A DNA stretch of 63,159 nucleotides, filler included, from Vannella sp. (Eukaryota): the NCBI GenBank assembly GCA_023345925.1. It is 6 parts of 6 records of this genome, joined end to end, with 100 filler letters (N's around TTAATTAATTAA, not from the genome) between each part and the next. Parts side by side here need not be neighbours in the genome. Positions count along the whole stretch, not along the records: positions 33,675 to 43,052 come from JAJQQN010000978.1; 5 more parts are not named here. One strand, written 5' to 3'. The notes beneath the pieces are model-generated. The model made no database searches and was not told the DNA's origin. It worked only from the letters and a program-made list of their open reading frames with translations. Made by a program: the position numbers and the translations under genes. Each line of letters starts with the position of its first letter. Position 1 is the first letter of the stretch. Of this stretch, positions 33,575 to 40,607 are shown piece after piece.

Positions 33575-33674
33575 NNNNNNNNNNNNNNNNNNNNNNNNNN
33601 NNNNNNNNNNNNNNNNNNTTAATTAATTAANNNNNNNNNNNNNNNNNNNNNNNNNNNNNNNNNNNNNNNNNNNN
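33575..33674. other. Artificial contig linker
   Basis: 44 N + TTAATTAATTAA + 44 N. Confidence 0.98.
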
Positions 33675-34079
33675 TGCAGGTGACGGGATGTCGAGAATTC
33701 CTTCGAATTAGTGGAATTCTCTCGTCCTTTTTCATTTCTTCCATCGAAGGTTTGATAAACAATCCCCCAATAAGATAAGTCCATGTGGAAGTTTGGGCTA
33801 TTTATCCAAATGTTTAACGTAAACGATATGTGTAAGAGAGACTCACTTTCAATGAAGGAAATCCATTCTCCCTTGAGAAGGAACCTCATTTTTAACTTGC
33901 TCCTGGATGAAGTCCTCTTTATCCTACACGGGCGAGGCTGATTCTCCTCACCCCGGCTTTTCACCGTACAATGACCTTCTACGCTTCATCTTCCGGCTGT
34001 AGATGGTCTAAATGGCTTAATGAACAGTTTGTTCGAGTGGAGACGTCTAACTGCGCTGAGTAAGCCCGAAACTGCTCTT

Positions 34080-34127
34080 CGGTTTGAGGGGGTCAATTCT
34101 CTCATCGGTTTGAGGGGGTCAATTCTC
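34080..34127 (+). repeat. Direct repeat CGGTTTGAGGGGGTCAATTCTC x2
   Basis: Two identical 22-nt copies with a 26-nt period. Confidence 0.85.
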
Positions 34128-34223: not shown

Positions 34224-36384
34224 ATGAGTCTTGTTTCCCTGCTTGATGGAGACCTGGTCCTTACACCTCAACGGCTGGACGAAGCAGGAACGGAGAGGAG
34301 TTTGTGTGGAGGGTTCCTCCTGGCGATGGCAGCGGGATTTGCTTTCGGTGTGCTGCTGGCTTTGCTTCAGCTCCTTCGGTATTCTGCTAGTCTGAAACAT
34401 CGTTTCATCTTTCAGAACCACGTGATCCTCCTCTCCCTCTTGCTGGCGTGTTGTGGTGCGCGGTCTCTTTCTTTCGTCTTGTTCTCGCGCCTTAATCGTT
34501 CGTAAGCTCGTCTTCTCGAGCAAATCCAACACAACATAGCTCTTGAATCGTTTCGACAGACCTTTGCACTGCAGCAGGCCCCCTCCACGCTTGTTTTCCT
34601 CGCTATCTCGACACTTCTCCTCACCTGGTGAGTAGCCCGCTCTCCCCCCTCATCTATCACTTCTAACAGACTCCCCTAGGCAGGACATATTTACCTTAGT
34701 GAGTGGTAAAGGCACCGGTGCTTCTCGGCGCCTGCACAGATTCACCTTCATCCTCAATGTTGCGGTAGTCCTTGGTATAGTGGCTGCGAGGCGATTTTAC
34801 CCTCAAGCTACACTAACTGCTATCCCTTTGGGCTTCATTCTTCTTGTGATAGGCTTTGGCTATCTGGGAGTGCCGAAATGGCGCCATCCGGAGGTGCAGC
34901 CAAGAGATAATGTCCCTCGAGCAGCGGCCTTTCACCGTGTGAGTGTTCTGACATTCAGTAGTTTGCTTTGTTACCTGTTGTGGACCGTACTATTCTGTGT
35001 CACATCCGTTCTGCCTTTCAGTGAGCAAGAATGGGTTTGGGTGCAGGGAGGAGAGCTTCTTGTTGTGCTTGTCGTTCTCACGCAAGTTCATCATCTGTCT
35101 GACTTCTCTTCGCTTTCTCTTCCGCTTGAATTTACCCCGCAATGGCTGACCATGTTGTTGCGCGAGCAAGGGCTCATGCATTATTCGAACCGGATTGTCT
35201 CTATTCCTCAGACGCTCCATCTCACTGGAGGGTGCCATTCGTCTGTGAGAAAAGTCAATCTAATTTACCAGAAGGCGACGCCCTGGTTGCCACCTGCAGT
35301 TATCATCAAAGTCATGACATGGGACCGTAGTTTTGGCGCCAAAGTGGCTTTGGCGGTCAGGAGATTCCTACCTGAAGTATTTCATACCAAAGAAGTATCC
35401 TATTTACAATCGTATGAGATCGAAAGTCATTTCTACAAAGAAATCGCCGCCGAATGCCGCGGTCTTATTGTCCCTCGAGTCTATTATAACTTTGCTGACA
35501 TCTTCAATCACCGTTTTGGCATGATTATGGATGACGTTACGCAAAGAGATCAGATGCAGAAGCCAATGGAGGACGGTCAACCGAATGGATTCAATTTGAT
35601 GGATTGCCGCGTTATTGTAGCCCATTTGGCTCACTTCCATGCCTGGTTTTGGGGACACTCACAGCTGCTTCGATTTAAGGTTTGGTCTGTTGGTGGCTAC
35701 TACACTGGTACGAAGAGGGGCGCACTCAAACAAGAAGTTCAAAAGCACTGGGCTCTTGTTTTGTCCCAAATTGGGAGTGCGTTGGACTTGTTGAGATTTC
35801 AGGATCTTGGCGATCGGCTGCACCGTAATCGTAACGTTCTTCATTCGATCTACCACCCAGATAAGCTAACAACTCTAATCCACGGTGATTTCAAAGTCAG
35901 TAACATCTTCATTGATCCTTCCCCGATCTTGCCCTTGGCTCCCACTGTGAACAGCAAGAAGTTTGTGAATCAGTTCATCACCCAAACGACGGAAGCAAGC
36001 GGGCGGACGGTGAGCGTGATTGACTGGCAATGGGTTGGGCTTGGCACTGGAGTGGTCGATTTGGCCTATTTTCTGGCCACAAGCCCGTTCCTTAACTCGA
36101 TTGACCGACTGAGTATGAAAAAATACGCGAAAATCTACCACGCAGTCCTAGTCGACAGAGGAGTGGCCAATTATCCGTGGAAGACCTGTTGGGCGGACAT
36201 GCGTTATGCCTTTCTGGACTTCCTAGTGTACGTCATCTGCTGCAAGTGGAGTTCAATGACTCTCTCCGACTTTGAGTCCAACCGCCAAGCAGGGAAAGAC
36301 GGGCTCCACCTTCGCTCTTTGCCTCACATTCGCAAACTCATTTCAACAGCAGATTACTTTATGAACACTTTAGGGCTTGATTGA
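34224..36384 (+). CDS. THH1/TOM1/TOM3 (GPR137-like) 7TM domain fused to an EcKL/APH-fold small-molecule kinase
   Basis: Two introns (about 34456-34506 and 34629-34679) give seven hydrophobic segments with TOM1-like motifs (LLALLQLLRY, APSTLVFLAISTLLLTWQDIF, FILNVAV, GELLVVLVVL). Kinase motifs follow: ESHFYKEI, PRVYY, LAHFHA, LIHGDFKVSN, VIDWQW, DLAYFL. Confidence 0.8.
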
Positions 36385-36443
36385 GGCACACCCCATCTTC
36401 CCTGTACTTTATCCTCTTTGTAAACTAATAAAGGAGCTTATCC

Positions 36444-38123
36444 TTATCCTTCAAAGGGGGGCTCAACGCTACGGTGGCGTTTTTGAGGGTGGCAGGGTCC
36501 CGATTCTCTTGTGGAATCAGGAGAACGGTGCAGTTGATGTCTCAGGTGACTATCCGATGTTTCTTTCTGATTCATTTGCCTTCTCATAAATCCCACCAGC
36601 GCGCCGTGGCCATGAGACTGGGCCAGGAAAGGATCAGACACCAATTGCTCCGCCGAAGGTCGCTTCAGAGCGTCTTGGGTCCAACATTTTTCTAAAAAGT
36701 GCCCGCAGAGTGAACTGATGTTTCCTGGTATGAGAGGATGCAAAGTATCAGGCTCTGGAATAGGAGAATGCCCAACAACCATTTCGAATAACAAAGATCC
36801 AACGCTCCAACTGTCAGAGACCTCCAGGCACAGTCCTGACCTGGCTTCTGGCGCGGAGTAAACAGAGGGAGTTTGCAAGGTTGGGTCCGCCAGGAACCCG
36901 CTGAGCTTGACAATGCCTTTTGTGGAAATCAGAATCTGAGAAGGTTCGATTCCGGCATGGACGATTCCGGCCGCATGGAGATGACTAAGAGCTTTCAGCA
37001 ATTGGCAAATCACCACGCTTGCTGCAGCTTCACTCATTGGGCGATTTCCCTTTCGTAGTTGAGCCAAAGAGAAGTCGAGAAGCTCTCGGAAGATGAAGAA
37101 TTCTCCCGTTACCTCATCCGACCCCACGCCAAAGTGCTTGACCAGATGCTGGTGCGGATGCTTCCTCATCAGCTGTACACTCTTGCAACAAACATTGCGG
37201 CTCTTGGAAGTGGGCTGAAGAATCTGTTTCGCACACAATCGAGAATTGCCGATTCGGGCTTCCCAGAACACACTCGAGGAGCCCTCTGCAATCTGCCGTA
37301 TGCGCTGGACACTGCTGAGGTCCTTCAAATGCCACATTGGCTCTGGTTTCTCCAACTTGGCGGCCGAGTGAAGCGAAGACCGCCTTTCCCACTTGGACCG
37401 TAAAAGGTCATTCTGGGGGCGTTCTCTCTTTGTGTGACTGGAGAGTAAGCTCTCCATGCGTTGCTCGAAGAGTTCGTTGTCCAGATCATCAATGCGCAGC
37501 TGTTCGAAGCGTTTGCTGATGGCTTTGCTTTGGTGTTCGCTCTCTAATCGCTCGATGTCCTTCTCTACTTGTTGCATCTGTTGCTGGTCTAAGTCTAAGT
37601 AGTGTTGGAGGTCTTCGGTGTGTCCTGGAGCGCCCCACAGTTACTTCTCGGATGAATACTGAGAGGTTGAGAGTACCTTTGGTAAACTGGCGCCTTTTCC
37701 AGTCGCCAGGAGGCTCTGTTGTTACCACGCGCTTTGTAACAGTGTTATCTGAGTGTTAAATGGTTAATCAAGTCCTTAGGGGACTCCTAAGGGGTGTAAC
37801 GGACCTGCTTTGAGGGATGTGTGGCGCCAAATGAGTTGGTTCTTCTCCAGGGAGGGTCCACTTAGGCTGTTTCGCAGTTCGTTCTCTTTCTCTATCCACT
37901 CAGTATCTTCTTCACAAAGCATAGGAGCGGAGTTCCGCAAACGGAAGGAAATGGGGCGTGACAGCCGGCGCCTCCGTGCGTTCGGTGATTCTCGCTCGCC
38001 TGACGGACTTTGCGATACGCCTCGAAGTGAGCCGAATGTATGGGTAACAGAAGAGCTAATGCTCCTACTCAGCGAGCGCTGCCGCCTCCTCACAGGACGT
38101 TCTCTCTCGGGAACCTCGCCCAT
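36444..38123 (-). CDS. Protein kinase-like pseudokinase with low-complexity / coiled-coil N-terminus
   Basis: Kinase-fold remnants CAK, HQHLVKHFG, ALSHLH, YSAPE, DSWSVG, KRPSAEQL. HRD is replaced by HAG and DFG by SGF. Start approximate; introns near 37630-37680 and 37750-37790. Confidence 0.7.
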
Positions 38124-38217: not shown

Positions 38218-40607
38218 ATGACGGAAGGGGAGAAACGGGTCTCCGTGAGGCTGGCGACTCGGATAGCTCGTCTTGTGCAAGCGGGGACGGCGGGGGAACG
38301 GGATGCAGTGTTGGTAGAGATGGAGGAGTGTACTCCTGGTGAGGTGGCGCAGGTGTTGGAGCACTTGAAGGGGCAGAATGGCCTTTTGGCGCCTTCCTCA
38401 CAGCCAGATCAGTTCTTCTCCTTCCTGCTAGCGTTCTTACACCTTCTGGGGCGTGACTCTCTTCGACATCCACCTTGGGACTCTTACATGCTGCGCCATA
38501 TCGGCTCTTTGGACCTCCAAATCAATGAAAGCCTCGCTCCTCTCCTCAAGGTGGGCCACTCCGAGACTTTGCAGAGACTCGCTAGCTTCTAATCCCTACT
38601 TGTATGCTTAGGAGATCGTTAGAGTCGACCATGATATGGCCCAGAAGCTCCTGGAACTCTACTTTAGGAGGGAAGAGCGAGTTCCTCTTGTGGAGAAGGT
38701 TCTCACGTTCTACTCGACCCAGCGAGTCAATCAGTTCTTTAAGATGTTGGAAGACTATATCAGCAACCCTCATCACACTCCCAGAGTCCTCCGGCTGCTC
38801 ACCAGCGTCACAGCAAAGCAAGGAGCCCATGTGGACAAGATTGCGGACTCCAAATGCCTCAAAGCACTGTGCGAAGTACTCCGCACCACCACTGAACTGT
38901 GTGTACTGGGCCAGGGAGTGATGATCTTAACTATGGTGCTCCCAGTCATCCCCTCGCAAGTGCCAAAGTTACTTCCCGCTTTTATGCGAGTTCTGTTTAA
39001 CGCAATGACCTTTCCTGCGCTTCCCCGCTCTGTTCAGCAGCAGATGGAATGGTTCCTGAAGCATATCTATGGCATGTACCCAAAGTCATTCACAGCCCAC
39101 TTGGAGGAAATGAACGGAATGTCGCCTCAGATACTGGCCAAGATGGAACCGCTGCTCTGTCAGATGCGCTTTAATACGGGACTTCTTAGTAAGATAGAAG
39201 ATGAGTTGAAAGTGGATCGGTGGCGCAATAAGGAGCCTTATGAGATTGTGGCCAAGTGCTTGGAAGGTGAATATCTCGATTTTGTGGCTCGCCCGCATCA
39301 CGGAATGGAGGATGTTGATGTCTATGAGCTCTATCAGTCATTGGATGATCCTGCGATGCTTCCAAATCTGGAAGATAATGACTTGGGTGCGTTATCGCGA
39401 GAAGGACAAAAGATTCTCCACTTGCAGGACCTTATAGAACAGAAGATCCTCTCCAGACCCCTCAAAGATGGAGAGCTTTGCTTCTCTCCGGACCAATTGG
39501 AACCGAGATTGATCCTCCTCCGAAACGAATTGATTTTTGAGCGTTATCTTCAACGCCAATATCTCCGCCGTTTAAGGAAGTACCAAGCTCAGTCGGTCCC
39601 TCCTATTGTGGTAGAATCTGCAACAGAGGACAGTCAAGCAAAGGATCTTCAAATCCAACAATTGACAAAGCGCAATGGAGAACTAAACCGAAGAATGCGG
39701 AATTTAGAGGCCAAGTACTCTTCGGTGCGTTCTCTGCTTGGCAATTCTAGCAACGCGCTCAAACTATCATTCTAGTGGGAAACAGATATCATTCATCGGG
39801 CTGATAGCACTCAGCAGCAATTGAACAACTTGCAAGAGATCCACCGGCTCGTTGTTGTTGAATTGGAGGAATCCCGGGTGAGGACAGACTCCGATTGAAT
39901 CAAAGGAGGTTTCTTATGTTATGGTAGCGAGAGCATTCGGCCCTCCAGGAAGAGTTCTTGAGGAAGACAATCGAGTCCCAAGATATCCGCTTGCAACTAA
40001 CGTCCTTTCAAAGGGAGCAGGCAGCTTTCTTTGCTCCCTACAAGAACTGCAGTCTTAGTTTAGCCCGAGATCTTCCCATTTGGTACGTGGCCTGAGTTTC
40101 TGTGGGATGCATTCTGATGAACAAGTCACTTCAAAAGGGAACAAAACTATTCTCGAGCTTGCTCCAATGCCCAAGCTGCTTCTCTGGCCAACGAAGCCAT
40201 GAAGGAAAAAGAAGACGTTATTTACAGTCTCCGCAGCCGCATTGAAACCGACGCTCTCAAGATGAAGTGAGAAAGCAAACAAAACGCGCCAAAACTGACC
40301 TCCTCTTCTTCAAAGCACTTTGTCCGAGCAGCTTCAAGATTTGAAGCAGACTTTGGGCGCTAAGACAGAGCAGCAGCAAGTGACTGCATCGGACATTAAG
40401 AAACTGCACTTTGCCATCCAACAACAAGCGGAAATGGCCAACAAGAAGATCGGCGCAGTCGAGGCCAAATACCAAACTCTCCGGAAAATCAATTTGGCCT
40501 TGGAAGTGCGTTTTCCTCCTTTTCCTATCCTCTGCCTTCCTCACCATCTCTTCTAGAAACGCTGCGGCCAACTTTGCGCTCAGATTGAAGAACGCGCAAA
40601 TAACTAA
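38218..40607 (+). CDS. TSC1: Hamartin (TSC1)-like protein, multi-exon
   Basis: ILTMVLPVIP, HIYGMYPKSF, MEPLLCQMRFN...DELKVDRWRNKEPYEIVAKC, LLRNELIFERYLQRQY, then a long coiled coil. Confidence 0.82.

Follow-up and report, generated by a model that had tools for sequence, protein, structure and literature searches.

An EcKL/APH-type kinase joined to a divergent TOM1-related seven-helix membrane domain in Vannella sp. and other Amoebozoa

The stretch of DNA analysed here (hereafter the window) comprises 63,159 nucleotides (nt), filler included, from the amoeba Vannella sp. (GCA_023345925.1). In the part derived from JAJQQN010000978.1, it carries a gene (34224-36384, + strand) whose predicted product joins two domains that are usually found apart, an N-terminal membrane domain of seven transmembrane helices (7TM; individual helices TM1 to TM7) and a C-terminal phosphotransferase of the EcKL/APH fold. 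The membrane half is homologous to the THH1/TOM1/TOM3 family, the kinase half is homologous to EcKL and keeps its catalytic residues intact, and the fusion is conserved across Amoebozoa.

The best model of this gene, whose splice sites are predicted, has three exons (Table 1) and encodes 688 amino acids, with seven hydrophobic helices followed by an EcKL/APH-fold kinase carrying all its catalytic residues. Among 1447 in-frame splice models starting from the ATG at 34224, scored on three profiles free of window sequence, the model with the two introns of Table 1 ranks first on all three profiles (66.5 vs 64.0, 73.2 vs 71.4 and 44.2 vs 42.3 bits for the runner-up), the best single-intron models ranking only 90 and 123. 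Intron 2 is identical in all top-ranked models. The lead for intron 1 is just about 2 bits over the next model and its exact ends are therefore less certain. The initial annotation had also proposed two short GT-AG introns, a proposal that agrees with this model except for the position of the first one. Indeed, one of its helix motifs ended in ACCAR, which implies an intron at 34456-34506 (ranks 9, 4 and 4 on the three profiles), whereas exon 1 as read here gives ACCGAR. Codon usage slightly prefers this alternative (0.49 vs 1.34 bits) and did not separate the two models. Both introns of the gene are plausible because their sizes and donor sites resemble those of two other genes of the window, one bystin-like and one MCM2-like (introns of about 37-60 nt, donors GTACGT, GTGCGT and GTATGC, placed by eye). 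Under either intron-1 model, the product shows seven Kyte-Doolittle segments, the number announced from the first inspection.

One alternative explanation of such a fusion would be an error of assembly or gene model, or a dead gene. A run of N lies 550 nt upstream, exon 1 taken alone shows no significant similarity to the profile of the relatives (7/293 shuffles reach its score) and exon 2 is borderline (1/290). Once spliced, the membrane half scores 66.5 bits on the same profile vs at most 12.2 bits for shuffles (0/299 reported shuffles reach it). Furthermore, a stop-free frame (34636-36384) spans four hydrophobic helices, TM4 to TM7, and the complete kinase, so that the fusion does not depend on splicing, as had been argued from the outset. 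An independent assembly (P0001) encodes the same exon-3 product with one residue changed, and many intact fused relatives exist. The fusion is thus almost certainly real, and the artefact or dead-gene explanation is largely refuted.

Table 1. Predicted features of the 7TM-kinase gene (positions in the window)
Feature	Position	Strand	Remarks
Exon 1	34224..34497	+	Start codon, brief N-terminus, TM1, TM2 including the invariant Arg80 (34461-34463)
Intron 1	34498..34539	+	42 nt, GTTCGT..TAG; top model, ends less certain; alternative 34456-34506
Exon 2	34540..34627	+	Loop 2 and TM3 with conserved Pro106 and Phe111; the Trp121 codon begins here
Intron 2	34628..34679	+	52 nt, GTGAGT..TAG; branch-like CTAAC site inside
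Exon 3	34680..36384	+	TM4-TM7, linker and entire kinase through the stop codon
TM4-TM7	34738..35091	+	TM7 bears the conserved Glu246 (35053-35055)
EcKL/APH-fold kinase	35125..36381	+	Gly-rich GGCH loop, Lys331 (35308), Glu369 (35422), Asp524 (35887), Asn529 (35902), Asp569 (36022)
Basic amphipathic helix, predicted membrane contact	35320..35370	+	Directly 3' of the ATP-binding Lys; helical moment; helix also in the model of relative P0006
KDGLHLRS, family-specific C-terminal motif	36295..36318	+	Likely part of the substrate site; role inferred
AATAAA, possible polyadenylation signal	36427..36432	+	Sequence only

The kinase half matches EcKL (PF02958) in Pfam with 40.5 bits (E 2.7e-10, cut-off 22), APH scoring below its own cut-off (19.8 bits); EcKL clusters of the Atlas reach 0.98 and 29 of 30 matches carry EcKL, APH or DUF1679. 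Conservation was assessed on 16 full-length fused proteins, partial ones being omitted, which share a mean identity of 43% in this half. Lys331, Glu369, His522, Asp524 and Asn529 (the last three in the HxDxxxxN loop) and the metal-binding Asp569 are present in 16/16, in keeping with the claim of an intact phosphotransferase, and the protein is very probably an active enzyme. The family also displays motifs of its own, GG-aromatic-aromatic-TG-x-KR and a C-terminal DGLHLRS. Directly after Lys331 lies an amphipathic helix (moment 0.49) that is the top window of this kinase and falls between the 75th and the 98th percentile in the relatives, each kinase being ranked within itself; its net charge varies from 0 to +4 across the fused kinases.

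What this enzyme phosphorylates is probably a small molecule or a lipid. Conserved residues of the C-lobe are more often basic than acidic (11 vs 5), making a polycationic substrate (choline or an aminoglycoside, for example) less likely. In the full-length structure model of the fused relative P0006, the kinase half has corramycin phosphotransferase as its top VIA match (Z 10.8, root-mean-square deviation (rmsd) 4.8, 268 aligned residues), followed by methylthioribose kinase (Z 8.4). Full profiles compared with the sequences of the Protein Data Bank (PDB) give weak matches, the best being ACAD11 (E 0.0018), the kinase half of which acts on small molecules. The targets of the APH-fold domain could alternatively be proteins or peptides, whether a partner or loops of the same protein, by analogy with what has been proposed for the kinases of the protist G-protein-coupled receptor (GPCR) fusions called GPCR-TKL. 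Its catalytic loop has a Lys two residues after the Asp, the position that this Lys occupies in Ser/Thr protein kinases, and peptide kinases of the same fold (TvaE, LxmK) are among the weak matches. This Lys is, however, also found in ACAD11, and both Pfam and the Atlas assign the domain to EcKL, which leaves a protein or peptide substrate very improbable.

Relatives of the kinase also exist in prokaryotes, where 19 of 601 pattern matches were confirmed; the full-length ones are 22-24% identical and show no fusion. They branch outside the eukaryotic clade, with the exception of one long-branch Flavobacteriales row placed beside soluble eukaryotic forms. Phylogeny, which had been suggested as a check on a bacterial origin of the kinase, thus identifies no donor.

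The membrane half is more divergent (mean identity of 23% among the 16 proteins). No exon of this gene, scanned separately, matches the THH1/TOM1/TOM3 family of Pfam (PF06454), and no fused relative scanned passes its cut-off of 25 bits, the best one (P0020) reaching 22.4 bits (E 9.6e-5). Homology to this family emerges from profiles. A profile of eight membrane halves, searched against 1.84 billion proteins, retrieved 100 matches at E <=0.001; five of them had already been scanned and the rescan of the other 95 found 61 that pass the PF06454 cut-off, two below it, eight further EcKL fusions and 24 with no family or weak matches to other families. Conversely, when a profile was built from 26 strong PF06454 proteins, the spliced membrane half of the window gene obtained 44.2 bits on it vs at most 7.7 for shuffles (0/486 reported) and -0.5 for the reversed sequence, these 26 proteins coming from the family profile's own matches, a choice that favours similarity. 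Profile-profile comparison with the TOM1 family gives probabilities of 98.8-99.0% (hhalign 98.96%, E 8e-18, 239 columns), and the detectable homology covers all seven helices. Furthermore, Arg80 and Trp121 (16/16) and Pro106, Phe111 and Glu246 (15/16 each) have counterparts that are invariant or nearly so among 24 TOM1-family proteins, namely Arg97, Trp138, Pro123, Phe128 and Glu276.

In a quick tree with long branches, from which P0081 was omitted, 26 core TOM1 proteins form a clade (Shimodaira-Hasegawa-like approximate likelihood ratio 99) that excludes the 23 fused domains. As far as sequence comparison can tell, the membrane half is a divergent branch of the TOM1 superfamily and is an orthologue of neither TOM1 nor GPR137. 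The initial description as TOM1/GPR137-like is therefore upheld for homology to the TOM1 family, outside its core clade and below the Pfam cut-off; for GPR137, the tie is an Atlas lead only, with clusters named TOM1, GPR137_N and PRRT3 at 0.87-0.89 and GPR137_N on 16% and 28% of the members (0.89 and 0.87). Some other architectures were met during these searches. P0136 is a TOM1-domain protein of 1496 amino acids with a large Cys-rich part ahead of the 7TM, and P0105 combines a TOM1 domain with an EGF-like domain. Among the closest matches of the fused membrane profile is a clade (support 99) of stand-alone 7TM proteins with no passing Pfam family (P0063, from Nematostelium gracile, P0068, P0069, P0070, P0071, P0085, P0088, P0089 and P0079).

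A separate model of the membrane half of P0006 (predicted local distance difference test (pLDDT) 73.3, predicted template modelling score 0.76) shows seven long helices. According to this model, the membrane half of P0006 has a GPCR/rhodopsin fold: its 50 VIA rows (Z 13.5-16.2) consist entirely of GPCRs, microbial rhodopsins and a designed GPCR-like fold, with MAS1 as the best one (Z 16.2, rmsd 3.8, 222 aligned residues). Foldseek agrees for this model but above E 0.001, nothing reaching E <=0.001 for either P0006 model. No TOM1 or GPR137 entry is listed in the fold searches, which does not exclude this family, and the membrane profile finds nothing among PDB sequences at E 10. A microbial rhodopsin was considered and ruled out, as TM7 has a conserved Glu and no conserved retinal-binding Lys.

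Lys and Arg are more numerous in loops 1, 3 and 5 than in the N-terminus and loops 2, 4 and 6 in 16/16 proteins (10 vs 5 in the window protein, loops differing in length). This positive-inside bias predicts an N-terminus outside and a C-terminus inside, and hence a cytosolic kinase, in agreement with the orientation first expected. The membrane concerned would be endolysosomal or that of the cell surface. This location and the class of substrate are proposed from what is known of TOM1, which sits on the tonoplast (PMC10576174), of GPR137, found on lysosomes (10.1101/2025.04.15.649019), and of the EcKL family.

The fused proteins constitute a family. Searches with the window protein returned 11 proteins, L001 returned 35 and profile A1 two; in metagenomes, 13 of 256 scanned stretches were confirmed, vs none of 70 in an earlier scan. 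By a plain count of hydrophobic segments before the kinase, some proteins being partial, 34 proteins divide into 26 with three to eight segments (24 clusters at 90%), two with a single one and six with none. L003, L004 and L005 are intron-free fused open reading frames of 687-737 codons on contigs of 2.1-2.4 kb. All the named fused relatives belong to Amoebozoa: Cavostelium apophysatum (Evosea), Clydonella sp., Vexillifera abyssalis, two Vannella proteins (one of which, P0156, falls in the subclade of the window protein, support 100/99), Pellita catalonica, Stygamoeba regulata and Balamuthia mandrillaris. According to the names of their sources, all are transcriptome entries except that of B. 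mandrillaris (NCBI), so that the two halves are transcribed together in relatives. Neither Dictyostelium nor Acanthamoeba is among the named matches. The distribution of these sequences indicates that the fusion likely predates the split between Discosea and Evosea. With its 26 relatives the architecture is no isolated case and is spread across Amoebozoa, and no characterized example was found. NCBI calls the B. mandrillaris protein (P0072) "Hormonally up-regulated neu tumor-associated kinase-like" while Pfam gives EcKL/APH, which is likely a misnaming. More generally, databases overlook the fusion: Pfam detects the kinase alone and the Balamuthia protein bears the name of an unrelated protein kinase.

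Globally, these data can be brought together in a tentative reading, one that falls slightly short of being probable, in which the kinase faces the cytosol, acts on an endogenous small molecule that is associated with the membrane, conserved and lipid-like, and is regulated by the 7TM half of the same protein. The TOM1-related 7TM would place the EcKL/APH kinase on the cytosolic face of the membrane, and the basic amphipathic helix is predicted to lay the active site against the bilayer. The high conservation of the substrate lobe, and the retention of a membrane anchor in nearly all the complete eukaryotic relatives within the clade, suggest that the substrate would be a single endogenous hydroxylated metabolite of lipid-like character, of the sterol, sphingoid or ether-lipid type. 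Binding of a cue inside the bundle of helices, near the Arg of TM2, the Pro, Phe and Trp of TM3 and the Glu of TM7, would move TM7, and the short linker, which contains Pro269 (16/16) followed by Trp276 (16/16) and Leu277 (15/16), would relay this movement to the N-lobe of the kinase. Taken by itself, control of the kinase by the 7TM is marginally favoured.

Several observations weigh against this reading. The membrane half evolves much faster than the kinase (identities of 23% and 43%), two residues typical of TOM1, the Arg of TM6 and the Pro of TM7, are not kept in the 16-protein alignment, and the residues that are conserved also occur in stand-alone TOM1 proteins, in which case they may have a role in folding alone. 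Both structure models are of P0006 and not of the window protein, and the full-length one, on which the kinase fold matches rest, is poor (pLDDT 56.8). NCBIfam has nothing for the window protein and weak, mixed matches for its relatives, and no library names a substrate. No dileucine motif for lysosomal sorting is common to at least 8 of the 16 proteins, and the one Tyr motif lies inside the kinase fold. Finally, some relatives do without the 7TM. P0022 from Protostelium nocturnum and P0051 from Percolomonas, both labelled complete, have one anchor, and the rotifer entry P0021 is a kinase without any anchor helix. These three branch among the 7TM forms, a clade restricted to 7TM forms being weakly rejected (p-AU 0.034 in the approximately unbiased (AU) test, under a model setting by which, in trials run with the tool itself, 5 of 71 true clades were also rejected). 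L007 (4420-6224, + strand) holds an intron-containing relative of the kinase that, as read by eye, appears to have one N-terminal anchor helix where the 7TM would be; L009 looks alike, and both branch outside the 7TM forms. The 7TM can therefore be lost and the kinase can do without it. This would fit a history in which an anchored kinase may have acquired its 7TM a single time, TM1-6 then having been lost repeatedly.

Such a history favours a membrane-associated substrate and also keeps alive the main rival, in which the only role of the 7TM is to anchor the kinase and direct it to the right membrane; the kinase, for a lipid or another small molecule, would be constitutive and would receive no signal from the 7TM half. 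The one-anchor relatives, some of them nested among 7TM forms, and the fast evolution of the membrane half speak for it, and the amphipathic helix suggests that contact with the membrane is a need of the kinase itself. It is nevertheless on the unlikely side, as seven helices with polar core residues have been kept over Discosea and Evosea, beyond what an anchor requires, and most of the sampled members of the clade retain the multi-helix form.

Two of the taxonomic assignments among these reduced forms deserve mention in their own right. P0021 and P0049, both filed under the rotifer Didymodactylos carnosus and consisting of the kinase alone, come from contigs of 3-4 kb and are sister to the Protostelium protein P0022 (100/99), which would correspond to gene transfer or amoebal contamination. 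The one-anchor form recorded as P0051 and P0040 under the heterolobosean Percolomonas cosmopolitus stands beside the Balamuthia protein P0072 with weak support (97/67); transfer, contamination or a wider ancestry would each explain it.

The substrate could also be bound or passed on by the helix bundle; it might be a molecule from prey or a sterol leaving the phagolysosome, that the kinase would trap or detoxify by phosphorylation. EcKLs phosphorylate steroids and likely xenobiotics, as described for insects (PMC10859841). The nearest solved fold is that of an antibiotic phosphotransferase, the bundle contains charged residues, and amoebae, to which the named hosts belong, feed on microbes. 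Families involved in detoxification tend toward expansion and divergence, whereas the substrate lobe is highly conserved here and just two copies were seen under one taxon id (Vannella). No transport feature was found in the protein, and this possibility is on the whole quite improbable.

Regulation of a kinase for a lipid-like metabolite by its own 7TM can be extended to an ancient amoebozoan one-component system, in which a TOM1/GPR137-type 7TM would sense a lumenal or membrane cue and, with no G protein involved, would switch the fused kinase, whose product would be a phosphorylated lipid or sterol serving as a messenger not described so far. This more specific proposal is doubtful; if true, it would provide the orphan TOM1/GPR137 7TM superfamily with its first enzymatic read-out. 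The fusion would also point to a phosphorylated metabolite that Discosea and Evosea have both retained.

The window comes from a gene-dense eukaryote with a G+C content of about 49% and short introns. Upstream of the 7TM-kinase gene is a SWI3-like gene; its other neighbours are a protein-kinase-like gene, arranged tail to tail with it, and a hamartin/TSC1-like gene. An N gap (33575-33674), with the string TTAATTAATTAA in its middle, separates the SWI3-like gene from the 7TM-kinase gene. About 100 nt 5' of the start codon, at 34075-34126, a 26-nt unit occurs twice head-to-tail (96% alike) and could be a promoter element or an assembly duplication. The protein-kinase-like gene (36444-37640, - strand; Pkinase E 1.3e-21) lies 60 nt away; with HAG at the catalytic loop and SGF at the metal-binding motif, it likely encodes a pseudokinase. 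The hamartin/TSC1-like gene (38612-39775, + strand; E 7.1e-15) is located about 2 kb downstream; a functional link with it was considered from neighbourhood alone and dropped.

A literature search, which did not extend to supplements and subscription papers, found no description of an APH/EcKL kinase attached to a 7TM of TOM1/GPR137 type, consistent with the initial annotation, which knew of no such protein. The term "phosphotransferase" does not occur in the main texts of 10.1101/2025.04.15.649019, PMC5784254, PMC10463195 and PMC10445921. Neither TOM1, a tobamovirus host factor, nor GPR137, which regulates mTORC1 at the lysosome, is credited with a catalytic domain in the sections consulted of the sources on these 7TM proteins. 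To our knowledge, neither has an established ligand. A natural fusion to an assayable kinase makes ligand binding and signalling by the TOM1-type fold testable.

Compared with known families, the fused protein shares with THH1/TOM1/TOM3 (PF06454) a homologous 7TM, the Arg of TM2, the Pro, Phe and Trp of TM3, the Glu of TM7 and the same predicted topology; it differs by its position outside the core clade and below the Pfam cut-off, by the lack of the TM6 Arg and TM7 Pro, and by the enzyme that it carries. GPR137 has no domain besides its 7TM, as far as the relevant part of 10.1101/2025.04.15.649019 describes it, whereas a kinase is added here. Like the EcKLs (PF02958; BmEc22K, AgEcK2), the kinase passes the family cut-off with intact catalytic motifs. 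However, insect EcKLs are predicted to be cytosolic (PMC10859841), whereas the fused subfamily is membrane-tethered and has an amphipathic insert and motifs of its own. Among the structural matches, GPR155/LYCHOS (8wr3, Z 8.6) and a rhodopsin-phosphodiesterase (7cj3) also combine a 7TM fold with other functional domains, but their partner domains differ, their similarity does not exceed that of other 7TM folds and the fused family lacks a conserved retinal Lys in TM7.

The closest parallel is provided by the GPCR-bigrams, protist proteins in which a 7TM is followed by a C-terminal catalytic domain and of which six types are described, such as GPCR-PIPK (RpkA of Dictyostelium), GPCR-TKL, GPCR-INPP, GPCR-AC and GPCR-PDE (PMC5784254; PMC3206951). 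For these proteins, G-protein coupling or control of the catalytic domain by a ligand is unproven according to PMC5784254. The fused protein has the same organization in one protist chain, a 7TM of GPCR-type fold (as modelled for P0006) and a catalytic domain, and GPCR-PIPK and GPCR-TKL also occur in Amoebozoa (PMC5784254). It differs from them by the kinship of its 7TM with TOM1, that of RpkA being of Dicty_CAR type (PMC10445921), and by its EcKL/APH enzyme, which lies outside the six types as listed in PMC5784254 and would add a seventh; no PIPK family is among the Pfam matches of the window or of the relatives. This pairing is thus an undescribed variant of the general 7TM-enzyme kind that the GPCR-bigrams represent.

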